From: Escherichia phage phiWAO78-1
Reading direction: 5' to 3' (one strand)
Sequence record: MW331437.1
Length of the DNA: 44,551 bases
Both the position numbers and the translations under genes were made by a program. A model generated the notes under the pieces. That model was not told the DNA's origin and searched no databases. It was given only the letters and a program-made list of their open reading frames with translations. Of this stretch, positions 1,914-42,700 are shown in pieces. The number at the start of each line of letters is the position of its first letter. Position 1 is the stretch's first letter.

Positions 1914-3383
1914 ATGTTAATTATGAACGGTCAGAATCAGGGTGTTAAGACAAAACACCAGGAGTGGCTGCATCACTTTAATAAATGGCAGAAGGTACGA
2001 CACGCGCTGGAAGGCGACCTTATTCGTTATTTGCGCAACGTCGGAAAGAACGAACCTGACCCAACTTACGCCGCCCAGCGTCAGGAAGAATATGAGAACG
2101 GCGCTATCTGCTACAACTTCACTAAACGTACCCTGGCCGGGATGGTCGGCAGTGTCATGCGCAAAGACCCCGAGCAAATTATTCCGCGTGAACTGGAGTA
2201 CCTGTTACGTAATGCTGACGGTTCAGGCGTTGGGCTGTGGCAGCACGCGCAGGACACGCTGATGGAGATTGACTCGGTAGGCCGTGGTGGGCTGCTGGTG
2301 GACGCGCCGGAGACAGCCGCGGCAACGGCAGCCGAACAGAACGCAGGATTATTAAACCCGGTCATCGCATTCTATACCGCAGAGAACATCATCAACTGGC
2401 GGCTGACCCGCGTCGGTTCGGTTAACCGTGTGACAATGGTCGTGCTGCGTGAGGTATGGGAATATTCAGAACCGGGGGCAGAGTTCGAAACCAAGTTCGG
2501 TGAGCAATACCGCGTTCTCGATTTGATTGACGGGCGCTACCGCCAGCGCATTTACCGCTTCGACGCTGAAGGTGGTGCCCAGGATGAAGTAATCGAAATA
2601 TTCCCGGAACTCGGCGAACAGTTGCGCGGTAAAATCCCGTTCACCTTCATTGGGGCAAGCAACAACGACGCTACTATCGACGACGCCCCTTTGCTGCCGT
2701 TGGCTGAGCTTAACATCGGGCATTTCCGCAACAGTGCGGACAATGAGGAATCCAGCTTCGTTGTAGGCCAGCCAACCCTGTTTATTGCCCCGGGCGAGAA
2801 CATGAGCATGGAACAGTGGAAAGAAGCCAACCCCCACGGCGTGCGTATGGGGTCGCGCTCAGGTCATAACATTGGCTACGGCGGCAATGCGTTTCTGGTT
2901 CAGGCAGGAGAGAACAACCTAGCCAAGCAGAACATGCTGGATAAAGAGAATCAGGCCATCCAGATTGGTGCGCAGCTTATCACCCCGACGCAGCAAATCA
3001 CCGCAGAATCGGCCCGCCTGCAACGTGGTGCGGATACGTCCGTTATGGCAACAATCGCGCGTAACGTAAGCATGGCGTACACCGATGCGTTGCGCTGGGT
3101 AGCTGCGATGCTTGGATTGCGTGAAGACACAGAGATTGAATTCAAGCTGAATATGGAGTTCTTCTTGCAACCGATGACCGCGCCCGAACGAGCGCAGTGG
3201 ATGGCGGATATTAACGCTGGCCTGCTGCCTGCTACTGCTTACTACGCGGCATTGCGTAAGGCGGGGGTAACTGACTGGACTGACGAGGACATTCAGAACG
3301 CTATCGAGGACGCACCACTGCCGTTAGGTGCTGTCACTCAGGTGGCGGGGGAGATTCCGCAGTCGGCACAGCAACAGGAGTAA
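1914..3383 (+). CDS. Portal protein
   Basis: 489 aa ORF directly after TerL with AAGAGGA SD; size and position typical of portal. Confidence 0.75.
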   Translation: MLIMNGQNQGVKTKHQEWLHHFNKWQKVRHALEGDLIRYLRNVGKNEPDPTYAAQRQEEYENGAICYNFTKRTLAGMVGSVMRKDPEQIIPRELEYLLRNADGSGVGLWQHAQDTLMEIDSVGRGGLLVDAPETAAATAAEQNAGLLNPVIAFYTAENIINWRLTRVGSVNRVTMVVLREVWEYSEPGAEFETKFGEQYRVLDLIDGRYRQRIYRFDAEGGAQDEVIEIFPELGEQLRGKIPFTFIGASNNDATIDDAPLLPLAELNIGHFRNSADNEESSFVVGQPTLFIAPGENMSMEQWKEANPHGVRMGSRSGHNIGYGGNAFLVQAGENNLAKQNMLDKENQAIQIGAQLITPTQQITAESARLQRGADTSVMATIARNVSMAYTDALRWVAAMLGLREDTEIEFKLNMEFFLQPMTAPERAQWMADINAGLLPATAYYAALRKAGVTDWTDEDIQNAIEDAPLPLGAVTQVAGEIPQSAQQQE

Positions 3384-3391
3384 AATGGGAA

Positions 3392-3415
3392 AGCCCCGTT
3401 ATGGGGCTTTAACTT
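3392..3415 (+). terminator. Terminator-like hairpin after portal gene
   Basis: AGCCCC-GTTAT-GGGGCT stem-loop followed by T-containing tract; U-tract is imperfect. Confidence 0.4.
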
Positions 3416-3718
3416 TCCAGACTTCCCTGAGCGCTACGAGTTTATGATTGCCGATATCTCTCGATATTATTGAATCAGTAAAGCCATTGAACCATGACTT
3501 CATCCAGTCAGACGTTCTAAAATCGGCGTACAGAATGTGTATTGTTTGTGGGGCGTCAACGTTGTAATGTTGGCAGACATAAATGCATCCGCTGGAGATT
3601 ATAATAGCTTTGAACGTATCGTAGTCTTCTGAATCCGGGAACTCGCTAGAATCCCCGACAAGATATCTGTACGCGTATTTTTTTTATTCGTCTTTTTTCT
3701 TTTCCGCATAGTACTTTC

Positions 3719-3958
3719 TCAGAAGTGCCTGACTGGTTGTTTAAACTTCCAGTCACAATCTACATGTTTAATAGCACCTTTCGCAACAAGACTGTCTATA
3801 AATTCCGGCCCTGAATTTGTCTTGTACCATGTGTATCTGTTGCCGACTTTTACGTTTGGGAGGCTGTGGTACACAACATCACCAACCACCATAAAAGAAA
3901 CACCGATAGCCCCTTTTTCTGCATAAAGTTTTTTAGCAATACCCCTCATGTATAACAT
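3719..3958 (-). CDS. Hypothetical protein (accessory cassette A)
   Basis: 79 aa ORF on opposite strand to the flanking structural genes, second gene behind promoter element A. Confidence 0.4.
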   Translation of the reverse strand: MLYMRGIAKKLYAEKGAIGVSFMVVGDVVYHSLPNVKVGNRYTWYKTNSGPEFIDSLVAKGAIKHVDCDWKFKQPVRHF

Positions 3959-3969
3959 CTCCTGCGTAG

Positions 3970-4164
3970 TTAGTAAGGTAAGGCCTTGCGAATTGTATAC
4001 CCATATCCGAGGTAGCCGTTTTCCTCTTGCATAGCGGAGGCACGCAGCAGAGCAGCATTCTCGCCTTTTACTACAGCTACCACATAATCCGTAGAGTCTG
4101 GGCCGTTTTCTACAACTCCATACGCCTGTACGTTCTTGGTGGTAAGTTCATATGTGTTAGTCAT
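3970..4164 (-). CDS. Hypothetical protein (accessory cassette A)
   Basis: 64 aa ORF; ATG 4164 preceded by AGGAA SD and the conserved promoter element A. Confidence 0.45.
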   Translation of the reverse strand: MTNTYELTTKNVQAYGVVENGPDSTDYVVAVVKGENAALLRASAMQEENGYLGYGYTIRKALPY

Positions 4165-4195
4165 TTCTAAATTCCTTATCTCTCGTTTCGATAAC

Positions 4196-4228
4196 TGAAT
4201 AGTACCCTATTATATTGGGGTCTGCAAA
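4196..4228 (-). promoter_or_regulatory. Class-1 conserved promoter-like element, copy A (TTGCAG-N17-TACTAT with AATAG-N4-CTATT dyad)
   Basis: 33-bp element shared with copies at 6082, 15681, 37611, 39002; about 35 nt upstream of the minus-strand ATG at 4164. Confidence 0.6.
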
Positions 4229-4271
4229 TATTATTTTTATGCGTTACACTGGCGATACCACAGGAGGGCAT

Positions 4272-5315
4272 ATGAGCTTACTTACATCCCTAATCAGCCA
4301 CCAGATATGGCTGCAACGCACCGCATCCGGCGAAGTGAAAGACCTTGCACCATTTCTTCAGGAAATGCGGGACGAAATCAAACGGCAGGTCCTGTTATTC
4401 GGTGACGACGGGCGAAGCACTGCGCGACTGAATAAACTGTTACGCGACCTTGAAGAAGCACTGGCAGGACTTACCGGTGACTGGCAAACAAAGCTGACAG
4501 AAGACCTTAAGGAACTGGCGGCATATGAAGCAGAGTGGAACGTAAAAACGCTAACGGCTAGCGTTAACGCGGAATTTGTTACACCTACCGCCGAACAGGT
4601 GTGGGCCGCTGCCGAGTTTCAACCGCTCTCATTGAGCGACAAGCCTGTCGATTTCACTAAGTTGATGTCCGGTTGGGGTGAAGCCGAAGTCGCTCGCCTT
4701 GTAACAGGCGTTAAGATGGGTTTCGTACAAGGTCAGACGACACGGCAGATTGTTAAGAATGTCGTAGGCGCGGGCGGGCTGGCTGACATCTCCGAGCGAA
4801 ACGCCGCTACAGTAATACGTACTGCGCTATCGCACGTGTCCAACGAAGCCCGCAACGAGACGTACAGGCAAAACGACGACATCATCGAGAAGTACGAATG
4901 GGTGTCAACGCTGGACAGTCGTACCAGTACGATTTGCAGAGCCAGAGACGGAATGACGTGGGAAATTGGTATGGGGCCGATGCCCCCCGCCCATCCGAAC
5001 TGTCGATCGTGCACAGCCCCGGTAATTAGCTCGGAGTTCGACTTCCTCGATAAAGGCGCGAAACGTGCAGCTAAGGGTGCGGAAGGTGGTACCCAGGTGA
5101 GCGCGGACACCGCCTATTATGAGTTCCTTAAACAACAACCGGCATGGTTTCAGGACCAGGCACTAGGGCCGGTTCGCGGTAAGATTTTCCGCAACAGCGG
5201 TATATCGCCGGAAGAGTTTCGCGTAATATCTGTAGATGGTTTCGGGAATCCGCTCACGCTTAAGCAGATGGCGGAACTCGATAAACGTGTCGCTGATTAT
5301 CTGAAAGGGGAATAA
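4272..5315 (+). CDS. Head morphogenesis protein (phage Mu F / SPP1 gp7-like minor head protein)
   Basis: Region TLDSRTSTICRARDG...PPAHPNCRSCT resembles the conserved C-terminal signature of this family; position after portal; start at ATG 4272 with GGAGGG SD (ORF open from 4215). Confidence 0.7.
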   Translation: MSLLTSLISHQIWLQRTASGEVKDLAPFLQEMRDEIKRQVLLFGDDGRSTARLNKLLRDLEEALAGLTGDWQTKLTEDLKELAAYEAEWNVKTLTASVNAEFVTPTAEQVWAAAEFQPLSLSDKPVDFTKLMSGWGEAEVARLVTGVKMGFVQGQTTRQIVKNVVGAGGLADISERNAATVIRTALSHVSNEARNETYRQNDDIIEKYEWVSTLDSRTSTICRARDGMTWEIGMGPMPPAHPNCRSCTAPVISSEFDFLDKGAKRAAKGAEGGTQVSADTAYYEFLKQQPAWFQDQALGPVRGKIFRNSGISPEEFRVISVDGFGNPLTLKQMAELDKRVADYLKGE

Positions 5316-19367: not shown

Positions 19368-19879
19368 GCCAAGAATCAGTAGAAGCCGCCTATCGCCGTA
19401 AACTGGCCTCAAACCCCGACGGCGAGATGGACTACATCACGTTGCAAATCAGCCACCCGCTGTTGTCGAAGACGTATTATCTTGTGCGTGGGTTGCAGGA
19501 GCTTACGGCGACACTGGAGACGGGCGAAACAATCACGTTCGAGCCAACCCCGATGGAAGCGGCGGGGGCCGCTAACAACAGTGATATGGACCAGACGACG
19601 ACGTTCACTTTACCGGATATTCTCAATCAACTGGACGATGAGATGGATAAAATCCCGATGAGTAACACTGAGTTGCCGAAATTCGTCTTCCGCCGTTATG
19701 TCAGCACCGACCTGTCTTACCCGGCTGACGGCCCTGTCGTGTATGAGTTGCAGGCTATCAACCAGGAGAAAGGCGAGTTCTCCGCGGATGTTGGTACGCC
19801 TATGCTGAACCAACGAAGCACTGGTATACTGATGACACCTAAAGAGATACCGTTATTACGCGGCCTGTTGACCACATGA
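19364..19879 (+). CDS. Minor tail protein
   Basis: ATG 19364 overlaps upstream stop (ATGA); position in tail tip gene series. Confidence 0.45.
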   Translation: MSQESVEAAYRRKLASNPDGEMDYITLQISHPLLSKTYYLVRGLQELTATLETGETITFEPTPMEAAGAANNSDMDQTTTFTLPDILNQLDDEMDKIPMSNTELPKFVFRRYVSTDLSYPADGPVVYELQAINQEKGEFSADVGTPMLNQRSTGILMTPKEIPLLRGLLTT

Positions 19880-20241
19880 ATATTAACGACTACACGGGCA
19901 TACCTTACGACTTTCGTAAACGCAATTGCTGGCATCATGTGCGCATTGTCCGCGCGGATGCCGGGTTAGATACGCCAGCGTTCGACGTTACAAGCCCAAC
20001 GGCAATTAACGACGCGTTTGACGAAGGACATCGCAACACGAAGGGGCTTACAAAAATTGATAAGCCTGAAAACTTCTGTGCTGTGCTTATGGGGTATCGC
20101 CGTGGTGGTCGTATCGTGTGGCACGCAGGAGTTTACTTCGACGGGATGGTCAGCCATTGCGAGCTTGCGTCCCGTCAGGTACGGCTTGACAGGCTGGCGG
20201 ACCTCAGAGACACATACACGGAGATTGAATTTTGGCGATAA
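19876..20241 (+). CDS. Tail assembly protein (lambda K-like?; Cys/His-containing)
   Basis: 121 aa with NCWHHV and downstream His residues, positioned like lambda gpK between minor tail and central fiber genes; family assignment tentative. Confidence 0.35.
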   Translation: MNINDYTGIPYDFRKRNCWHHVRIVRADAGLDTPAFDVTSPTAINDAFDEGHRNTKGLTKIDKPENFCAVLMGYRRGGRIVWHAGVYFDGMVSHCELASRQVRLDRLADLRDTYTEIEFWR

Positions 20242-20297
20242 TCCTGCACTACACGCGAAACGCTGATGGCGCTTTCGACCGTACAAAACACGTCGGG

Positions 20298-22787
20298 ATG
20301 CCGATGGAGTTTGTCGTTAACCGTATCCCGGACGGCGTGCCGGTGCGCGTCTACCTGGGCGAGATTGGCGATGATACTGATGTCACCGACGACTTCGACG
20401 CACTCAAAGACGAAGACGCCGTGTACCACATTATTGAGGGCGCGGGTAGCGGGGCGCTCGGTGCAGTTAGTAAGGTGTTCGGTTTTATCCTTAAGCCAAT
20501 TGCCAAGTTGTTTGGTCTGAACACGGCCGCCAACGCCAACTACACGGCGACTAACAACCAGACAACATCGCCGAATAACAGCCTCACAGACCGCTCCAAC
20601 AAGCCGCGTCCTTACGAGCGCTCTTATGACATCTGCGGTACTGTGCAGACAATCCCTAATGACCTGATGCAGACGTACAAGGCGTTCAACTCCACGGGTG
20701 CTTTGCTGGAGTATTCATACTACGACGCAGGGCGCGGACATCTGCATATTGAGGCGGATGGCGTCACAGAAGGCGACACCCTGATAAGCGACATCACAGG
20801 CTCCTCTGTTGCCGTGTATGCGCCGTATACTTCCCCGAACAACACCGCATCGCCTCAACTACAAATCGGCGACGTCATTGACCAGAAACTCTATGTGACA
20901 TACTCCAACGACGACGTTGATGGTATTGTACTGAAGGCGCCAAACGACATTGGGGCTAACCCAAGCGCCGGCGGCACAGCTAAACGTATTTCAACCACAG
21001 GCTACATCTACGACCCGTCGGGCGGCTCTGCTTTTTCTGAGTTTCTTAGCGTCGGTGATGTCGCGGTGCTTAGCAACTTCGATGTTGCTGACGTCACTAA
21101 CCTGAACGGCTCGTTTGAGGTTTTATACGTTGACGACTTTGAGGTTCGGTTGTACGTCGGGGATATAGGTAACTGGGGCAACCTTAATAGCGGAGAGACT
21201 TACGCACTTACAGAGCGTTCTGATACATTCATTGGCCCAAGCAACACCTATGGCGTATCTCTTACGGACTGGTATTACATGGTTCGCGGAGAGGTTGACC
21301 GTGTGCTCGCTAACGTCGCGGGGCAGAACGGCCTCTACAAATACGACGGCGGATATAACCGCACCAGCGTAACCGTAGAACTCCAGTACCAGATGATTGA
21401 CTCTCAGCGTAACCCGTTGAGCGATATTTACACGGTACAGGCCACAATTACAGGCAACAACACGGACTACGTCGGCACGTCTATCTACGGTCAACTGCCT
21501 ACTGCATCGCGTTTCCGCGCCCGTATGCGTCGTATAACGAATTTTGATAAAGACTACGACGGTACGGTAAGCGACGAGATAACCTTCATCAACCTGTACG
21601 GTCAGTCTCTGGACACAACCCCGCACTACGGCAACCGAACTACCGTACATTGTGCCCGTAAACAGACGCCGCGTGCCGCCAGTATCGACAACCCGGAACT
21701 GCGCATGATTGCAACCGAGATGTGCTACAAATACCTCGGCAATGGGGTATTCGATACCGTAATGACGCCGAATACGCAGGCCGTGCAATCTCTAATCCGA
21801 CTGGCGCGTGACCCGGCGGTTGGTAATCTGGAACTCACAACGGCAAACATGGATAAGTTACTATCCGTGCAGGAAGAAATTGAGTCCTATTTCGGAAGTG
21901 AATTGGCGGGGCAGTTCTGCTACACGTTCGACGACTACGACACCACGATGCAGGACATCGTTCAGACTATAGCGGAAGCCGTGTTCTGCACAGCGTACCG
22001 TAAAGGCGCGGATATTATGTTGCGCTTCGACCGTCCAGTTGCGGGGCCTGAGATGGTGTTCACCCACCGCAGCAAAACTACCGGTACAGAGAAATGGACG
22101 CGCACGTTCAACGATTCTACTACCTACGATAGCCTGTCGTTCTCATACATCGACCCGGATACTAACGTACAGGAAACGATTTATATCCCGGAAGAACTCG
22201 GGGTAAATACAGAGGAATATGAATCGAAGGGCGTGCGCAACTACCAGCAAGCGTACTGGCTGGCGTGGCGTCGCTACCAGCGCAATGCGTTAAGTAAAGT
22301 TGTCGTAGAGTTCGAAGCTACGGAAGAAGGCGCTCTAGCTACTCCCGGCGGCGTAATCAGCGTGGTTAAAGGCTCCCGCATTGCCACGCAGGATGGCTAT
22401 GTTGTTGCCGTTAATGGGCTTACACTTACGTTATCTCAGCCGGTTACATTTACCTCTGGCGACGACCACTCCATCATCCTCAAGAAGCGCGACGGCTCCG
22501 TACAGAGTATCTCCGTTATCAAAGGAAGTCACGACCGCGAAGTGATTATGCTCTCCGCGCCGGAGGAGGCAATCTATACGGGGAATAGCGCACTAAAAAC
22601 TGAGTTTTCATTCGGCAACGAAGCAAGGCATAATGCTCAGAAGATAGTTGTTTCTTCAATCGACCCGGGCGACGACCGCACGGTCAAGATTACAGGCTAC
22701 AACTATGACGACGGATTCTATAAATACGACGGCGTCGCGCCATACGGCAGCGGTTTCTCCGACGGATTCAGCAATGGTTTTAATTAA
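20298..22787 (+). CDS. Central tail fiber / tail tip protein (host specificity J-like, putative)
   Basis: About 830 aa ORF after the minor tail genes; start uncertain (ORF open from 20232 with TTG; first ATG at 20298). Confidence 0.5.
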   Translation: MPMEFVVNRIPDGVPVRVYLGEIGDDTDVTDDFDALKDEDAVYHIIEGAGSGALGAVSKVFGFILKPIAKLFGLNTAANANYTATNNQTTSPNNSLTDRSNKPRPYERSYDICGTVQTIPNDLMQTYKAFNSTGALLEYSYYDAGRGHLHIEADGVTEGDTLISDITGSSVAVYAPYTSPNNTASPQLQIGDVIDQKLYVTYSNDDVDGIVLKAPNDIGANPSAGGTAKRISTTGYIYDPSGGSAFSEFLSVGDVAVLSNFDVADVTNLNGSFEVLYVDDFEVRLYVGDIGNWGNLNSGETYALTERSDTFIGPSNTYGVSLTDWYYMVRGEVDRVLANVAGQNGLYKYDGGYNRTSVTVELQYQMIDSQRNPLSDIYTVQATITGNNTDYVGTSIYGQLPTASRFRARMRRITNFDKDYDGTVSDEITFINLYGQSLDTTPHYGNRTTVHCARKQTPRAASIDNPELRMIATEMCYKYLGNGVFDTVMTPNTQAVQSLIRLARDPAVGNLELTTANMDKLLSVQEEIESYFGSELAGQFCYTFDDYDTTMQDIVQTIAEAVFCTAYRKGADIMLRFDRPVAGPEMVFTHRSKTTGTEKWTRTFNDSTTYDSLSFSYIDPDTNVQETIYIPEELGVNTEEYESKGVRNYQQAYWLAWRRYQRNALSKVVVEFEATEEGALATPGGVISVVKGSRIATQDGYVVAVNGLTLTLSQPVTFTSGDDHSIILKKRDGSVQSISVIKGSHDREVIMLSAPEEAIYTGNSALKTEFSFGNEARHNAQKIVVSSIDPGDDRTVKITGYNYDDGFYKYDGVAPYGSGFSDGFSNGFN

Positions 22788-22799
22788 AGAGGACTCTAT

Positions 22800-24833
22800 A
22801 TGTCAAGCGGATGCGGTGACGTTTTAAGCCTGGCGGATTTGCAAACCGCTAAGAAACACCAGATTTTTGAGGCAGAGGTTATTACCGGTAAGTCGGGTGG
22901 GGTGGCTACAGGGGCTGGTATCGATTACGCGACCAACCCTGTTACAGGCCAGACCCAAAAAACGCTCCCCGCCGTGTTGCGTGACGTTGGATTTTCTCCC
23001 GTGTCGTGGGACTTTTCTACCGGCGGTACGTTAACAGTTAATGACCGTGACAAAGTGGTGTACGACCCGGTTAGCAAAACATGGTACTCATACGCAGGTA
23101 CGCTACCGGTTACAGTTCCGGCAGGCTTTAGCCCCGTCGGTAACGCCGACTGGAAACCGCAGACCGACCCGGATTTGAGAAATGACCTGTCTGCCCAAGA
23201 CGGGTTAACTTTAATTGGTAGCGTTCCTGATGTCTTGGCGTTAGCTACGGTCAGTGCTTCGGAGGGGGATAGTATTATCCTCGATTCTTACGCGGGCAGT
23301 AACTTAGGCGGCGGCATTATGGTGGCGGTTTCGTCGACAGTTGATGTCGATAATATCGTAACATTTCCCGGTGATGGTGTTGTCTGGAAAAGGAAATTCT
23401 TCGATGGGTGTGCAACAGTGTATGACGCGGGGTTTAACGGCACGGGAGATTTAGCCGCGTACATTAATAAAATAAATTTGGCAGGTTATGACTGTGTGGT
23501 GCCTATTTCTGGTGAGATAACAACACCGATTGTTTTAGACATAGCAAAAGGCGCACTTATCGGAAAAAATAAATGTACTTTAACAGAATCTGCTTCCGTA
23601 ACTGGTGACTACTACCTAACCATTATTAACTCAAACACGGACTACACTAATAGAGATGTAATTAACGCAACTGCGTTAATGACTGGAGTGTCATTTGTTG
23701 GAAAAGGGGCCAGGAAATTGGCGATCGGTGGTTCTACCAGTGGGGAAGTCTCAGAGTTAAGAATATCTAATTGTGGGTTTATTTCAACAGCCGGAGTCGA
23801 GTTCCTTGATAATGCATACCGCGTATTGTTTGATAAATGTACGTTGTCCAGAAGTTTCACGGACTCGGTTATTTTCAATTCTCCTGCTAACGCTGGTGAG
23901 GCTATTAAGTTTAATCACTGTTGGATGGTGGATAACGGCGGACCATTTACGTTAACTAACGGGCAATTCATCTTTGATAGTTGCTCGCTGCCGGCGGGTA
24001 AGAGATCGGGATACTTTGACCCTGTATTGGCACTTTCTGATAACGCCCACGTAGTATTCGCCAACGGTAATATAGAGTACCAGCCGGGGCAAAGTTTCGT
24101 CGGATTCACGGTTGCAGGTAGCTCACGGCTGAGCATAAAAGACTCGACTGTCCTTCTGCCGTCTGATTACGCTTCGGCTCCTATTGTATGTAATGGCGAC
24201 GGGGTTGTCAGTCTTAGCAATTGCTCTTTGCCGTTATACGGCAGCACCTCCATCGCCACCGGGTTCCCTACCCGGCAGTTGGTAGGCGGCTTGAGCAAAA
24301 AAGTTATGTCACGCGGATGCTACCCTAGAGCTGGTTTTATATCTAGCAACTGGAATTTAGGGGCCATAGTAAGCCCATACATAAACAGTCTAAGCAATGG
24401 CTCAGGACAGTTCTTATCAATTTCAAACTGGACGCTATCGCAAACTGGTACAGGCACGGTAACTGTATCTGTAAACAATGACGTACCGAATACTCAAATG
24501 TTTACGACAGCGTTTTCAGTCACTACCCCGGCGTCATCTGCGAGCGCCAACTTCACACAGACTTGTGAAGATTGCGAGCCGGGTCGATATTTCCAGTTAG
24601 GATTTTGGGCTAAAGGGTTAGTGCCTGTGCTTGCAAGCATTAGGTTTTTAGATAAAAGTGGTAACGCCGTAGCGTCAAGTTCGGGGTACTCTATCCCGCA
24701 ATCCTCTACTTATGCTTTCTTTGCTTTCGTGGACACCGTCCCTCCTGGGGCCTTAACCGCTGAAATAAATTTTGCGATAGGGGGGTCAGCTGGTAGTTTC
24801 TCTTTACATAACGTCATATACGGTTTGATTTAA
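22800..24833 (+). CDS. Tail fiber / tailspike (receptor-binding protein, putative)
   Basis: 677 aa, last gene of the late operon, followed by a strong terminator; C-terminal half is Asn/Ser/Thr/Gly-rich with short repeats suggestive of a beta-helix; GAGGA SD. Confidence 0.6.
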   Translation: MSSGCGDVLSLADLQTAKKHQIFEAEVITGKSGGVATGAGIDYATNPVTGQTQKTLPAVLRDVGFSPVSWDFSTGGTLTVNDRDKVVYDPVSKTWYSYAGTLPVTVPAGFSPVGNADWKPQTDPDLRNDLSAQDGLTLIGSVPDVLALATVSASEGDSIILDSYAGSNLGGGIMVAVSSTVDVDNIVTFPGDGVVWKRKFFDGCATVYDAGFNGTGDLAAYINKINLAGYDCVVPISGEITTPIVLDIAKGALIGKNKCTLTESASVTGDYYLTIINSNTDYTNRDVINATALMTGVSFVGKGARKLAIGGSTSGEVSELRISNCGFISTAGVEFLDNAYRVLFDKCTLSRSFTDSVIFNSPANAGEAIKFNHCWMVDNGGPFTLTNGQFIFDSCSLPAGKRSGYFDPVLALSDNAHVVFANGNIEYQPGQSFVGFTVAGSSRLSIKDSTVLLPSDYASAPIVCNGDGVVSLSNCSLPLYGSTSIATGFPTRQLVGGLSKKVMSRGCYPRAGFISSNWNLGAIVSPYINSLSNGSGQFLSISNWTLSQTGTGTVTVSVNNDVPNTQMFTTAFSVTTPASSASANFTQTCEDCEPGRYFQLGFWAKGLVPVLASIRFLDKSGNAVASSSGYSIPQSSTYAFFAFVDTVPPGALTAEINFAIGGSAGSFSLHNVIYGLI

Positions 24834-24841
24834 ATAAAACT

Positions 24842-24867
24842 AAGGCCCCTTTCGGGGCCTTTTCTCT
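24842..24867. terminator. Bidirectional rho-independent terminator (AAGGCCCC-TTTC-GGGGCCTT)
   Basis: 8-bp stem plus T-run between the convergent late and replication modules. Confidence 0.7.
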
Positions 24868-25003
24868 ACTCTTCTGATAACTTCTCCAGTACAAACGCCA
24901 GTTGCGCATTAGCGGCGTCTCTTTGCTGCCGTAGTCGCAGAACCTCTTCTTCGAGTTCCTTGATACGTTTTTGCAATGCCGGAATCGGGGCTATGATGTT
25001 CAT
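24866..25003 (-). CDS. Small coiled-coil protein (45 aa, hypothetical)
   Basis: ATG overlaps the stop of the upstream Toprim ORF (ATGA); below ORF-track cutoff. Confidence 0.25.
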   Translation of the reverse strand: MNIIAPIPALQKRIKELEEEVLRLRQQRDAANAQLAFVLEKLSEE

Positions 25004-25515
25004 CTGGTAAATTTCCTCGCAAGATACGTTATTTCTTCTTCACAAAGTTCATCAAGGTCGTTTGACACAAATCCTCTGGTGAATGTTTTGCTGAACTTTA
25101 AGCCAGCTTTATCATTGTCGCCCGCGCACACCCAGTCATACGGCAAAAGTGCCATTTGCTGCCGTAGGTCGGTTGGTATATTTGACCCAAGTGCGCTTAC
25201 GGCATTGAACCCGCAATTCATCAAAGCAACAGCTTTAAATATGCTTTCGGTAACAAATACGGTCCCGCTTTCCGGAAGGTATTCGAGCCCCCATAAACAA
25301 GGTCTTGTTGTTCTGGTGAAGTACCGCGCGTCTTTAGGATTTTTACAGTTCTTTTCAGCATGTGGCTTGTAGTGCTGATATCCGCGTAGCTTACCGTCAA
25401 ACCCCCACAGGTAAAATGTAGCTACACCGGGGGCTAAGACTACTCGTAAACGGCCGGCGTCAAAACCACGTGACAGCAGATGTGCCTTAAGTAGAAACTC
25501 CTCGCCATCCATCAT
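25000..25515 (-). CDS. Toprim-domain protein (putative DnaG-like primase core)
   Basis: Conserved Glu in VFVTESIFKAV and DxD in CAGDNDKAG match Toprim catalytic motifs. Confidence 0.5.
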   Translation of the reverse strand: MMDGEEFLLKAHLLSRGFDAGRLRVVLAPGVATFYLWGFDGKLRGYQHYKPHAEKNCKNPKDARYFTRTTRPCLWGLEYLPESGTVFVTESIFKAVALMNCGFNAVSALGSNIPTDLRQQMALLPYDWVCAGDNDKAGLKFSKTFTRGFVSNDLDELCEEEITYLARKFTR

Positions 25516-26909
25516 TTCTTACCTCTGCGCTTCATATAATTAAGTAGTTCGTCCTGTACAGACCTTTTCTCGTCTGTACGCGCGGCGACAACTTCATCAA
25601 GAGTATCTCTGGCTATTATTTGGTAAATGAATACAGACCGTTTGTACCCAGATTGCATCTGCCTTACTGGCCCTATGCGCTCGATAACCTGCAAATAGTG
25701 TTCCAGGTTCCACCCCTGACTTATAAATGCCATGTGATGCCCGCCGTGTTGTAGTGACAGCCCGTGACCTGCGGAGGCCGGGTGTATCAGGAGCATAGGT
25801 ATTTCACCGCGGTTCCACGCTTCCATCTGCTTATTGCCCTTCGCGCCTTTAGCAAACGCCTGTGCCTGCGGGAATCGCTTAAGGATGCGCTCCAGTTCGT
25901 GCTTAAACTGATAGGCCACCAGCAACGGAGCACCCTGTAGCTCCTCAACAATGGACTCAAGCGCATCAAGCGCATCAAGTTTCGTGTCGTGCACTTTCTC
26001 CCATTCTTTGGTTGCTTCGCCGTCTGGTCCTGACACATATACGGCGCCGGATGCAATCTGCAAACACTTAGACGTCTTCGCCGCTGCGTTAGCCGCTTCG
26101 ACTTCTCCGCTCTCCAGTTCCGCAAATAACTTTTCCTCCATATCGATGTACGCCTGTCGCGCTTTCTTCGGCAGGTCGATTTCAACCGGTACGATAATCG
26201 GCGCTTCGCACCCGAACCACTCGGCGGCGTCAATCGTGAGACTAATGTCCTTCATCTTCTGGTGAATTTCATTATCCGCACCGGGGCGAGCATGATACTC
26301 GCGCGCCATTGCCGACTTACCTTTCTGTACCGAGTTAAACCAGCGGTCGGTGAATGCTGTGTACGATGAGCCGAGGCGCTCGCCAGCGTCGATAAACCAG
26401 TTCTGCCCCCACAAGTCTTTTAGGCCGTTTGGTGATGGTGTGCCCGTCAGGTTGATGAAACGCTTAACCTTACCGAACGCAACTTTGCTAAGTGCCTTAG
26501 CTCTCTTGCTACCACCAGACCGGCTGCGGAATGATTTAAGTTTCGTGCTCTCATCGGCAACGATAACAGTAAAAGGCCAGTCATCTTTGCCGTAGTAGTC
26601 AATCAGCCATTCGATAACTTCATAGTTAGTGCACACCACATTAGCGTCTGACTCCAGAGCCTCGATGCGGCGCTTCTCTGAACCGGTCGCATCTACGACA
26701 CTCAGGCATGGAAATCGCCATTTCTCTTGTTCTGCGGGCCATGTGCCGGATGCGACGCGCAACGGAGCGAGGATTAACACGCGGTCGTCGTCCGTAAGCT
26801 GCCCGTTGCGGAACAGGCGGTTTAATGCCCACAGTACGCTGCCAGTCTTCCCGGCACCCATGCTTGCCCATATGTTGCAGCGATGGTGCCGCAACATGAA
26901 CGAGGTCAT
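25512..26909 (-). CDS. SNF2-family (superfamily 2) helicase
   Basis: Walker A SMGAGKTGS, DExx-type box VIVADESTKLK, LTGTPSPNG, and C-terminal helicase motifs. Confidence 0.75.
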   Translation of the reverse strand: MTSFMLRHHRCNIWASMGAGKTGSVLWALNRLFRNGQLTDDDRVLILAPLRVASGTWPAEQEKWRFPCLSVVDATGSEKRRIEALESDANVVCTNYEVIEWLIDYYGKDDWPFTVIVADESTKLKSFRSRSGGSKRAKALSKVAFGKVKRFINLTGTPSPNGLKDLWGQNWFIDAGERLGSSYTAFTDRWFNSVQKGKSAMAREYHARPGADNEIHQKMKDISLTIDAAEWFGCEAPIIVPVEIDLPKKARQAYIDMEEKLFAELESGEVEAANAAAKTSKCLQIASGAVYVSGPDGEATKEWEKVHDTKLDALDALESIVEELQGAPLLVAYQFKHELERILKRFPQAQAFAKGAKGNKQMEAWNRGEIPMLLIHPASAGHGLSLQHGGHHMAFISQGWNLEHYLQVIERIGPVRQMQSGYKRSVFIYQIIARDTLDEVVAARTDEKRSVQDELLNYMKRRGKK

Positions 26910-36775: not shown

Positions 36776-37009
36776 TTATTCCAGGTCTTCTAAAGTAGCG
36801 GCCATTCCGCGAACTTCAGCAACAGCGCTATATCTCCCGCCAACATTTTTCACGACACCGGATTTAACCAGTACCTTTAACGACCCTTCAATAATGGCTG
36901 AACTATAGTACTTAAAATAACTACGGCGCAAGTCGATAACGCTGCATGACCCTTTTTTACGTGTTAATGAAACGACTGCCGTAAACACTCGTGATTGAAA
37001 CTCAGTCAT
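36776..37009 (-). CDS. Hypothetical protein
   Basis: 77 aa ORF overlapping the upstream HTH gene. Confidence 0.4.
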   Translation of the reverse strand: MTEFQSRVFTAVVSLTRKKGSCSVIDLRRSYFKYYSSAIIEGSLKVLVKSGVVKNVGGRYSAVAEVRGMAATLEDLE

Positions 37010-37176
37010 TTCACGTTCTCCTTAATCCACGCTTCCACTTTCTCTCGGTCAAACGTACCAGGCTGGCGGCGACCCATAATGCGGATACAACAATCCGGGA
37101 ACTTCCCACTCTTTAACCAGTTATTCAGCGTGCGACGAGTAACCCCGATACGCTCGGCTACCTCATTCTGCGTCAT
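37006..37176 (-). CDS. AlpA/excisionase-like HTH DNA-binding protein
   Basis: MTQNEVAERIGVTRRTLNNWLKSGKFP matches the AlpA-type HTH pattern; start at ATG 37176 with GAGGG SD (ORF open from 37209). Confidence 0.5.
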   Translation of the reverse strand: MTQNEVAERIGVTRRTLNNWLKSGKFPDCCIRIMGRRQPGTFDREKVEAWIKENVK

Positions 37177-37208
37177 TCTCAAACCCTCATTATCAGTTAA
37201 CGGAGGCA

Positions 37209-37237
37209 AGTATACATTGCGAATAGTGGGAAATCAA
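37209..37237 (-). promoter_or_regulatory. Candidate sigma70 promoter TTGATT-N17-TATACT for the AlpA-like gene
   Basis: Hexamers at optimal spacing on the minus strand; spacer contains a GAATAG half-site. Confidence 0.4.
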
Positions 37238-37517
37238 ACATAATTGCACCTATTGACATTATGAAAATCTTCGTTTAAGGTGCTTCTATATCTTAGTTAC
37301 TTTGATTCTTGTTCACCTTGTAAAACCCGCCGAAAACGAGCGCTCAACGCGAAGTGTTAGGCGGCAGTTTACTGAACATGAGAATTATCGTAACTTTCCT
37401 TCCTAAGTATCTCCGGTTGCCCTGGGCAAGCTCTATTCTCATCGGCAGCATACCTCTTAAGTATCTGATTTTCTTAATGTGCCGTAGATTCGCAACCGTA
37501 AAAATGTAACGATTATC

Positions 37518-37541
37518 GGGCAGGCTTAATGCCTGCCCTTT
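37518..37541 (+). terminator. Terminator-like hairpin (GGGCAGGC-TTAAT-GCCTGCCC + TTT)
   Basis: 8-bp perfect stem in a roughly 450-bp region without convincing ORFs. Confidence 0.35.
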
Positions 37542-37610
37542 AGTTACCAAGTAATAAGAATAAAGGCACGACCCTCCCTAAAGAATCACAACGGCAACGT
37601 AACTATTCTC

Positions 37611-37643
37611 TTGCACACCCCAACATAATAGGATACTATTCAC
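37611..37643 (+). promoter_or_regulatory. Class-1 conserved promoter-like element, copy D
   Basis: TTGCACACCCCAACATAATAGGATACTATTCAC on the plus strand about 30 nt upstream of the first gene of the rightward small-ORF array. Confidence 0.6.
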
Positions 37644-37673
37644 TTATCGGAACGATACAGAGGAGTGAGGGTT

Positions 37674-37865
37674 ATGTTTAAGAAGGGTCAGTTGGTTAAA
37701 TGCGCCGACGGTAAACACGGTGTGATTGAATTAAAATCTGCTTTATTTCCGGGAGAGTACGTAGTTACTGTGCAAAAGGTGAGAGGAGTAAATTCGGTGG
37801 TATACGTAGCGGAAGAGAATTTAAAACTAATCGGCAACAATTTTAAATTCAAAGGGGAGAAGTGA
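37674..37865 (+). CDS. Hypothetical small protein
   Basis: ATG 37674 with GAGGAGTGAGGG SD (ORF open from GTG 37665). Confidence 0.4.
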   Translation: MFKKGQLVKCADGKHGVIELKSALFPGEYVVTVQKVRGVNSVVYVAEENLKLIGNNFKFKGEK

Positions 37866-38104
37866 TGCAAATCATAATTACAGATAACACAGTTTCCTAC
37901 GAAAAAGATGACGACGATACTTTGGAGAGCATAGGCGTAAATATCGGTGATGTTTTCGATGTCCTTGGTATCGTATCAGGCAGCTGGTGGATTAAGGTCG
38001 GTCGCTACAAAGTTCCGGTAAGCAAGGCAGAAGCGAAAATATTCTCAACGGCATCGAATCATGATGCTCGTGCCGACGACTCTGAGGGAGGTTGCCGTGA
38101 ATAA
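37862..38104 (+). CDS. Hypothetical small protein
   Basis: 80 aa; ATGA overlap with upstream gene. Confidence 0.4.
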   Translation: MMQIIITDNTVSYEKDDDDTLESIGVNIGDVFDVLGIVSGSWWIKVGRYKVPVSKAEAKIFSTASNHDARADDSEGGCRE

Positions 38105-41368: not shown

Positions 41369-41831
41369 TGGATTGCATTTTACCGCTGCGTTCGAGGGAT
41401 TCCGTGGAACCGCGTATCGCGCTACACCTTCGGAAAAATACTTAACCATAGGCTACGGAAGCTACGGCCCTCATGTGTATGAAGGACAGAAGATTACGAA
41501 GAGGCAAGGCCTCCTGTTGCTGAATCGCGATATGGCTAAGGCCGTAGCTGCGGTTGATGCAGCGGCGCACCATTCACTGACACAGGCGCAGTTCGACGCA
41601 GTGTGCGACCTGGTCTATAACGCGGGTACTGGCGTGGTAGCAGCTACTACTGGCACGGGTAAGGCGCTGCGTTCCGGCGATATTGCGACGCTGCGGGCTA
41701 AGCTGGCTCTGTTCATCAACCAGAACGGCAAACCGTTACTTGGTCTACGCCGCCGTACTGCTGGGCGCCTGGCGCTGTTCGACGGTAAACCGTGGCAGGA
41801 GGCTGAGGCTATCGGGAGGGCCATTAAATAA
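41346..41831 (+). CDS. Endolysin, GH24 lysozyme-like (T4 lysozyme family)
   Basis: N-terminal catalytic pattern EGFRGTAYRATPSEKYLTIGYG matches the E...D/T...TIGxG lysozyme signature. Confidence 0.8.
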   Translation: MSRNISDNGLHFTAAFEGFRGTAYRATPSEKYLTIGYGSYGPHVYEGQKITKRQGLLLLNRDMAKAVAAVDAAAHHSLTQAQFDAVCDLVYNAGTGVVAATTGTGKALRSGDIATLRAKLALFINQNGKPLLGLRRRTAGRLALFDGKPWQEAEAIGRAIK

Positions 41832-42044
41832 TGGACGAATATGAAGGCGTTTAGTATTCTGGTTAGGCCAAGTTTTTCGTATTTGCTAATGGAGGCCAAT
41901 ATGGCATTGCAAGAGTTCACTAACCCTGTTAAATCTCGTGATGATATCGACGAGTCTATTGGTTACGGCGAAGGTTGACACCTAAGAGTGATCCGACGAT
42001 ACTTAAATTACCTCCTGTTCCATCCCTCTGCTCTCCAGTTTTAT

Positions 42045-42074
42045 CCCGGCCCTGACCCAGCCGGGATTTTTTTT
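42045..42074 (+). terminator. Strong rho-independent terminator (CCCGGC-loop-GCCGGG + T8)
   Basis: 6-bp GC stem followed by eight consecutive T residues. Confidence 0.75.
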
Positions 42075-42159
42075 ATCTATTTTCTGCAATGACTAGTTGA
42101 CTATTACTCTGACACCAATTATATTTACTCCATCGACAACGAGAACGGAGTAGGCAGAA

Positions 42160-42348
42160 ATGATGACTAAGATTAAGCACACCGATAATTGGGGCGATTT
42201 CCTGGAGATAGATAAGTGCAGGGACGGGTCATTACTTATAACTTGTACCGACGGTGATAGCGACGAATCAGGTAATGTTAATATGAGCCTGGATGATTTT
42301 ATGACTATTGTTGAGCAGGTTCTGGCGTTTTATGGAGATGTTAAATGA
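42160..42348 (+). CDS. Hypothetical small acidic protein
   Basis: 62 aa ORF after terminator. Confidence 0.4.
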   Translation: MMTKIKHTDNWGDFLEIDKCRDGSLLITCTDGDSDESGNVNMSLDDFMTIVEQVLAFYGDVK

Positions 42349-42494
42349 AAATCACAGATATCGAAGCATTCAAAGACGCGCAACTGATGGCACGCATTGC
42401 CGTTAGTCACCTGGGTGGAAGCATTCCTGCGGATTCGTTCTGGGCAGCAGCGGTGAAGGCACTGAAAGCAGCTTATGCAGGAGAGAAGAAATGA
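42345..42494 (+). CDS. Hypothetical small protein (49 aa)
   Basis: ATGA overlaps with neighbours; below ORF-track cutoff. Confidence 0.3.
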   Translation: MKITDIEAFKDAQLMARIAVSHLGGSIPADSFWAAAVKALKAAYAGEKK

Positions 42495-42700
42495 ACAATG
42501 TTACTGTCGGCGGAATCTATATGAGTGATTACTCGTGGGAGGGAGAGGGTGGCGCCAGATTCATCGTAACTGCGGTTGGGTTGGACCACGTGCTTATTGC
42601 AGACCTCCCATTGATAAAATTCAATGAATCCTATTTGGAATATTGTGTTGGCCGAAAGGAGTTCGAGGCTAAATTTAAGTTTGCAGGAGAGAATAAATGA
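42491..42700 (+). CDS. Hypothetical small protein
   Basis: 69 aa ORF, translationally coupled. Confidence 0.4.
   Translation: MNNVTVGGIYMSDYSWEGEGGARFIVTAVGLDHVLIADLPLIKFNESYLEYCVGRKEFEAKFKFAGENK

Follow-up and report, generated by a model that had tools for sequence, protein, structure and literature searches.

The tailspike of Escherichia phage phiWAO78-1 is very probably a two-part chimera, carried as the single tailspike of a Kagunavirus siphophage, in which the anchor of the genus is followed by an exchanged module of the O78 type. A horizontally exchanged O78 module on a Kagunavirus anchor has already been published for this very protein; the modest addition made here is a mosaic at the sub-domain level, which accounts for the form of the GC trough in the gene. 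What is visible as a trough corresponds mainly to a nested patch introduced more recently by gene conversion, lying inside an O78 module of another, less AT-rich lineage. The window, i.e., the whole stretch of DNA analysed, is 44,551 bp long with a GC content of 0.508, and a published table describes phiWAO78-1 (MW331437) as a Kagunavirus from sewage with a genome of 44,551 bp.

The tailspike gene and its published status

The gene for the tailspike, or receptor-binding protein, extends over 22800..24833 on the plus strand and encodes 677 aa. These borders, given correctly in the initial annotation, agree with the list of open reading frames, and an exact-sequence look-up identified the product as QQV88057.1 of phiWAO78-1. 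The surrounding region (22000-25600) matches 490 phage records, nearly all of them from Kagunavirus, Jerseyvirus, and other Guernseyvirinae siphophages. As is characteristic of a Kagunavirus tailspike, the gene lies downstream of a GpJ-like tail protein, and it is convergent with an SNF2-helicase/methyltransferase block, as seen from the open reading frames, annotated relatives, and sibling contigs. Using domain names and TSP4 residue ranges taken from PMC7506556, the protein was laid out as an anchor (aa 1-~65), a D2-like domain (aa ~66-120), and a neck (aa 124-131), continuing in the module with D3' (aa ~146-198), the beta-helix D3 (aa ~199-540), and D4 (aa ~545-677).

The protein has been described, under the name phiWAO78-1_RBP (QQV88057.1), as a horizontally acquired receptor-binding protein of the Kagunavirus O78 subtype (Virol J 2023;20:174; PMC10408124). 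The accessible text of that article sets the anchor border at aa 124, presents structural models of O78 receptor-binding proteins from Kagunavirus and Lederbergvirus next to each other, and assigns the phiWAO78-1 protein to group C, in agreement with the O78 type and with the name of the phage. As far as that text extends, the published account and the present reading show no difference of substance, and the junction located here in the neck helix agrees with the published border. The phrase 'GC content' has no occurrence in the accessible main text, and we found nothing there on the sub-domain patch at 23466-23855.

Conserved anchor and recombination junctions

The Kagunavirus-conserved anchor comprises aa 1-128 (22800..23183, plus strand; GC 0.536, GC3 0.55) and opens with an N-terminus specific to the genus (aa 1-~65), followed by a beta domain resembling D2 and Tail_spike_N (aa ~66-120) and by the first part of the neck helix. 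According to the AF2 secondary structure, this helix spans aa 124-131 ('DPDLRNDL'), and it is the equivalent of the 'neck' in CBA120 tailspikes. When anchor proteins were compared among Kagunavirus phages, they proved near-identical until '...WKPQTDP(D/N)LRNDL', so the tailspike has the genus-conserved N-terminal anchor of ~125-130 aa that marks the tailspikes of Kagunavirus (Guernseyvirinae). A Pfam search of the whole protein returned nothing beyond a sub-threshold Tail_spike_N match (PF18668, aa 77-112; 21.6 bits, with a cut-off of 25). PF27114 (Phage_tail_beta) is listed in precomputed tables.

Junctions were mapped by local blastn of the window against four Kagunavirus loci (L001-L004). 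The Kagunavirus phages M01, Golestan, and fFiEco02 share 88-92% nucleotide identity with the window from 22000 to 23177-23185, and similarity to non-O78 Kagunavirus tailspikes stops at this 5' recombination junction (23177..23185), within the neck-helix codons (aa 126-129). From 23186 to the stop codon, blastn found no DNA match in the other Kagunavirus genomes compared. At the 3' junction (24830..24835) the similarity to the Kagunavirus backbone is back, right at the stop codon, with identities of 90-95% beyond it. Phage Bas70 has an alternative, earlier junction near 22986 (aa ~62), identified by blastn and from the translations. The initial annotation had read the gene as a horizontally exchanged host-range module on a conserved anchor, and this reading is supported, with the borders of the module corrected to 23184/23186-24833. 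Searched separately, the anchor and flanks lead to Kagunavirus at 88-92% DNA identity and the module to unrelated lineages at 60-76% amino acid identity. Knowledge of both junctions, in the neck helix and at the stop codon, to base precision is a small gain.

Golestan, M01, fFiEco02, Bas70, and Kagunavirus phages with K1-specific endosialidase-type tailspikes have the same anchor as phiWAO78-1, and share with it the order GpJ-like tail protein, tailspike, terminator, and convergent helicase genes; their receptor-binding modules past aa ~128, however, are unrelated to that of phiWAO78-1, Bas70 diverging already from ~aa 62. The terminator in this arrangement is a GC-rich hairpin, AAGGCCCC-TTTC-GGGGCCTT, with T-runs on both strands (24842..24861). 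It belongs to the conserved Kagunavirus backbone and probably terminates transcription in both directions, from the tailspike gene on one side and from the convergent replication genes on the other. The scan that revealed it found 7 sites in all, with 2.6 expected; another terminator-like hairpin, located at 23183-23207 right at the 5' junction, was rejected as a probable chance match with a weak T-tail.

Homology, fold, and predicted function of the module

The exchanged receptor-binding module (aa 129-677; 23184..24833, plus strand; GC 0.461) is of the CBA120 TSP4 (O78) type. Over 100% of its length it is 76% identical in amino acids to orf213 (TSP4) of CBA120 and to other Kuttervirus genomes (tblastn), and it matches phrog_4217 with an E-value of 1e-227. 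A phmmer search aligned aa 68-677 to residues 86-697 of PDB 5W6H (chain A), the enzymatically active domain of CBA120 TSP4, at an E-value of 1.4e-287; the homology to this solved structure is full-length across D3', D3, and D4.

An AF2 monomer model, built from a 28-sequence alignment, reached a mean pLDDT of 82.5, with values mostly of 80-97 over aa 140-677 and one 10-residue block at 63. Foldseek placed 5w6h_A first among PDB structures (E 6e-77), then K2-2 TSP, Kp7 gp52, and CBA120 TSP2, with Klebsiella and Acinetobacter depolymerases among the matches after 5W6H, and the C-terminal part matched the carbohydrate-binding beta-sandwiches CBM16, CBM61, and CBM11. The predicted model thus shows a right-handed parallel beta-helix body, D3, at aa ~199-540 (window ~23394-24420), followed by a CBM-like C-terminal beta-sandwich, and bears out the tailspike beta-helix fold suspected from the sequence alone. 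The interval 23400-24450, which the initial annotation had delimited by eye as AT-rich, by coincidence corresponds to D3.

TSP4 is cited as cleaving the O78 antigen in the accessible text of PMC10408124. On the strength of TSP4 experiments and of host metadata, the phiWAO78-1 module would bind and cleave the O-antigen of E. coli O78, thereby setting the host range, a specificity that we infer for a tailspike diverged from TSP4 by 24% in amino acids. The tailspike presumably forms a trimer. Predicted candidates for the catalytic carboxylates are D217, D247, E319, E367, D378, and E426, all invariant in 28 homologs.

CBA120 TSP4 (orf213; PDB 5W6H) shares with the phiWAO78-1 protein the architecture of D2-like domain, neck, D3', beta-helix D3, and beta-sandwich D4. 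It is 1036 aa long, however, with an AD-XD1-XD2-XD3-D1 N-terminal region, and builds a branched complex of four spikes on a myovirus baseplate, whereas phiWAO78-1 has the 128-aa Kagunavirus anchor in place of this region and a single spike.

Distribution of the module among phages

A tblastn search of a phage collection located the module, at 60-76% amino acid identity, in eight other unrelated phage lineages, namely Kuttervirus, Nonanavirus, Gamaleyavirus, Kuravirus, Jilinvirus, Nouzillyvirus, and two unclassified ones, and in no Kagunavirus of the collection searched. In addition to CBA120, its carriers include AVIO78A (Nonanavirus), ASO78B, phiHAO78-1, Bp4/EC1-UPM/PhAPEC5/7 (Gamaleyavirus), XT18/32/73 (Kuravirus), ep3/ECOO78 (Jilinvirus), and ESCO41 (Nouzillyvirus). 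Many were isolated on O78 hosts: AVIO78A, ASO78B, phiHAO78-1 (APEC), XT18/32/73, EC1-UPM (O78:K80), and ECOO78. The other O78-type tailspikes (AVIO78A, ASO78B, phiHAO78-1, Bp4, XT18, ep3, ESCO41, etc.) have the same module with the same '...HN.IYGLI' C-terminus, but their anchors are lineage-specific and the genomic context differs in each.

At the DNA level, megablast of the phage collection yielded no record covering the module, and blastn with a word size of 11 gave an identity of at most 78% over the module to any sequenced candidate donor. The tailspike shows the features of modular exchange among receptor-binding proteins, i.e., abrupt loss of similarity at the anchor border with downstream homologs in unrelated genera, and a deviation of the exchanged part in composition and codon usage.

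The same chimera also occurs among close relatives. The tailspike protein belongs to a 90% cluster of 10 members, located on contigs of 12-45 kb. Across 19800-24968 the window shares 92.7% identity with L013, a sibling Kagunavirus contig; L017, a Kagunavirus-like contig with ~71% identity to the window, is a more distant relative. Both are collinear with the gene over its full length; this does not refute the exchange, because both are siblings carrying the same chimera.

These results confirm the textbook pattern whereby the receptor-binding modules of tailspikes determine the specificity for a serogroup and pass from one phage to another that is unrelated to it. They can be used in the prediction of host range, here towards avian-pathogenic E. 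coli O78, and in the engineering of chimeric spikes.

The GC trough

In 300-bp windows, for which the genome mean is 0.508 (sd 0.043), GC is 0.52-0.55 in the 3 kb upstream, begins to dip near 23250, falls to 0.40-0.43 at ~23300-23900, returns to 0.50-0.52 at 24000-24400, and then remains at 0.45-0.49 up to the stop at 24833. The dip claimed for 23400-24450 is therefore real, with GC 0.454 over that interval (z = -1.8; only 4% of windows of equal length are as low, at four loci), but it starts near 23250 and is not uniform, 24000-24400 being at 0.50-0.52. The trough lies only ~2-3 sd under the mean, and three other loci are comparably AT-rich. These islands are located at 3400-3950, 37100-37800, and 41800-42700, so the AT-rich region of the tailspike is not unique in the genome. 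Its core at 23466-23855 has a GC of 0.395, within the lowest 0.06% of 390-bp windows, and the only other locus to match it is 37534-37933.

Codon usage follows the same partition. GC3 averages 0.566 (sd 0.056) over 42 ORFs, compared with 0.47 for the tailspike gene, in which the anchor (aa 1-128; GC3 0.55) differs from the remaining gene (0.34-0.51), as the initial annotation had anticipated. Outside the AT-rich core, the GC3 of the module is 0.48 (range 0.47-0.51); within the core it is 0.34 (Fisher p = 0.007).

The module family is AT-rich in all nine lineages, with GC 0.38-0.45 and GC3 ~0.3 whatever the GC of the genome, which accounts for an AT-rich tract of atypical codons in a Kagunavirus of 51% GC. 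In eight comparison phages the tailspike gene has a GC of 0.40-0.44, even where the surrounding locus is at 0.45-0.48 (ep3, phiHAO78-1, ASO78B). The phiWAO78-1 allele stands apart from the other O78-type tailspikes, its GC3 outside the core being higher than in any of them.

A nested patch and the mosaic structure of the module

Nested within the beta-helix, in its N-terminal half, the AT-rich core forms a patch (aa 223/235-352; 23466/23502..23855, plus strand; GC 0.395, GC3 0.34). It was delimited by a synonymous scan in which only codons for identical, degenerate amino acids were compared. With respect to CBA120, AVIO78A, ASO78B, and phiHAO78-1, the fraction of same codons is 0.76-0.81 inside the patch versus 0.36-0.39 outside, a difference reached in 0 of 200 permutations, and no such tract was found by the same scan against Bp4, XT18, ep3, and ESCO41. 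Nucleotide identity to the former four is 0.81-0.96 in 25-codon bins within ~23475-23849 and 45-79% elsewhere. A pairwise matrix of same-codon fractions placed CBA120, AVIO78A, ASO78B, phiHAO78-1, and L017 in one group of mutually similar alleles, which the window allele joins only in the patch. Judged by its synonymous codons, the patch appears to share recent ancestry with the alleles of CBA120, AVIO78A, ASO78B, and phiHAO78-1. With ~80% of its synonymous codons identical to those of Kuttervirus and Nonanavirus alleles, versus ~37% elsewhere in the module, the patch makes the gene a sub-domain mosaic.

The remaining segments have other affinities. The window is close to no sampled allele over aa 353-431, where the same-codon fractions (0.31-0.46) are in the range found between unrelated alleles. 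Over aa 432-677 (24093..24830, plus strand), the last third of the module, the allele is shared with L013 only (same-codon fraction 0.94); compared with all other O78 alleles, its synonymous sites are near the unrelated-allele baseline of 0.3-0.45. In L013, the low-GC3 tract reaches aa 431, exactly as far as this contig resembles CBA120-type alleles; local GC3 tracks allele ancestry in both the window and L013. Within the gene, the nucleotide identity between the two ranges from 65-68% at 23325-23474 to 100% at 24450-24833, which indicates continuing exchange among O78 alleles.

As an alternative, the whole module might go back to a single entry from an AT-rich donor followed by uniform drift, with no nested patch, its heterogeneity stemming from stronger purifying selection on the beta-helix core. 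This core is indeed the part best conserved at the protein level in all comparisons, and a two-breakpoint likelihood scan on all nucleotide sites, discarded as confounded by protein-level conservation, simply picked it out. Such a history is nevertheless very unlikely, as the excess of the patch was obtained on synonymous codons and against some alleles, with no comparable tract in Bp4, XT18, ep3, or ESCO41, and uniform drift cannot give a gene that differs from L013 by a third at 23325-23474 and is identical to it at 24450-24833.

An equally slim chance is given to the view that low GC and rare codons are kept by selection, either for slow translation during co-translational folding of the beta-helix trimer or as an mRNA feature, and would be a functional trait instead of the trace of a recent transfer. 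The persistence of low GC and GC3 in the module of nine lineages, even at loci of 0.45-0.48 GC, is what such selection would produce. Most of the window module, however, has a GC3 of 0.47-0.51, so low GC3 is not obligatory, and in the window as in L013 it follows CBA120-type ancestry; the same pattern results if exchange is frequent and leaves no time for equilibration. For the patch itself, selection at the nucleotide level might in principle account for the synonymous conservation.

The reading that we favour, a nested patch in a chimeric gene, would imply the following course of events, in which the direction and order of exchanges are presumptive. The first ~128 residues, which end in the alpha-helical neck, would attach the trimer to the tail tip, and the module (23184-24833) would act as a receptor-binding and depolymerase cassette of the TSP4 type. 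The cassette very probably entered by recombination, at the 5' side in the short conserved stretch of the neck helix and at the 3' side in the stop codon and the conserved terminator. Its bulk would derive from a diverged allele lineage of intermediate GC3 (~0.48), and the patch of ~350-390 nt (23466/23502-23855) would have been replaced later from the AT-rich allele group circulating in Kuttervirus, Nonanavirus, and other O78 phages, a replacement that would yield the deepest part of the trough. An ameliorated resident allele is only one reading of the higher-GC3 segments, which could equally stem from an unsampled, GC-richer donor.

More generally, we lean, with due reserve, towards the view that O78 tailspikes exchange units smaller than a whole receptor-binding domain: beta-helix patches of ~350-700 nt would be traded by homologous recombination among virulent phages from three or more unrelated lineages (Kagunavirus, Kuttervirus, and Nonanavirus-like), often enough to maintain ~80% synonymous identity over a flank baseline of ~0.35. 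If sub-domain exchange of this kind is true, local GC3 could tell from which allele lineage each patch came. The data suggest that beta-helix receptor-binding domains are themselves fine-scale mosaics, and such mosaicism could complicate the prediction of serogroups by clustering of whole domains.

Amino acid composition of the beta-helix

The AT-richness could also be a by-product of the amino acids of a beta-helix, with their AT-rich codons for Asn, Ile, Ser, Phe, Tyr, and Lys, and tell nothing of a foreign origin; despite an enrichment in Asn, Ser, Thr, and Gly and a somewhat lower GC1 and GC2 in 23251-23950, this explanation is hardly tenable, being largely refuted by back-translation with the codon usage of the genome (GC 0.50 predicted versus 0.405 observed for aa 226-350, and 0.507 versus 0.434 for aa 151-384), by a GC3 down to 0.34 versus the genome mean of 0.566, and by the abrupt break in similarity to other Kagunavirus genomes. 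With the observed GC so far under the prediction, the deficit is synonymous and not a matter of amino acid content.

The enrichment itself is substantial, Asn, Ser, Thr, and Gly together making up 37% of aa 201-550 versus 25% for 11 large ORFs taken from this genome, and Asn alone 7.1% versus a background of 4.2%. The initial annotation had described this part as short repeats rich in these residues; the enrichment stands, but neither Tandem Repeats Finder nor k-mer self-comparison detected sequence repeats in the module, where only scattered words of 4-5 residues recur. The rungs of the beta-helix repeat in structure, not in sequence.

Identity within the tailspike anchor

Across tailspike residues 26-125 (22875-23174), nucleotide identity between phiWAO78-1 and L013, a 92.7%-identical sibling Kagunavirus contig carrying the same chimeric tailspike, was only 71-80%, with third-position identity of 0.24-0.56, whereas the flanking bins (residues 1-25 and 126-175) were 88-92% identical. 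The supposedly conserved anchor is thus itself patchy in this pairwise comparison, and the drop between well-matched flanks indicates that recombination shuffles the D2-like domain of the anchor (residues ~66-120) as well.

The anchor coding region also contains a tandem repeat (22980-23022; 2.1 copies of the 20-nt unit CGTGACGTGGGATTTTCTAC), located at the same place as the alternative junction (~22986) where Bas70, another Kagunavirus, diverges.

The tailspike of Escherichia phage M01 (OR061069.1; locus 2301-3952) is annotated as two CDSs (2301-2633 and 2639-3952), and its translation loses frame after about residue 110, suggesting a frameshift or a sequencing error in the record.

Sequences adjoining the tailspike

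Downstream, the tailspike converges with an ORF encoding a 45-aa coiled-coil protein (24866-25003), and between them lies a GC-rich, perfect 8-bp hairpin with T-runs on both strands (24842-24861), which is kept in other Kagunavirus genomes and is probably a bidirectional terminator. Beyond it, a minus-strand ORF of 171 aa (25000-25515), with reduced GC (0.467; GC3 0.456), gave a sub-threshold Pfam match to Toprim_2 (E 2e-4; 21.9 bits vs a cut-off of 22.1). This Toprim-like ORF is carried by M01 and Golestan and is missing in L013, Bas70 and fFiEco02, in which similarity skips from ~24968-25003 to 25512; judged from these alignments, it is a presence/absence cassette directly beside the tailspike.

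Other AT-rich regions of the genome

The genome is richest in AT at 36776-38000 (GC 0.39-0.43 at 37100-37900). This region includes a divergent gene boundary, with several tiny ORFs and a small HTH_17/Xre-like regulator (37006-37209, minus strand; E 5.5e-8), and probably represents an early regulatory or promoter region. A further AT-rich island (3400-4170; GC ~0.41), between ORFs of 489 aa (1914-3383) and 366 aa (4215-5315), contains two small opposite-strand ORFs without a Pfam family (3719-3958 and 3970-4164) and looks like a moron-type insertion within the structural gene block.
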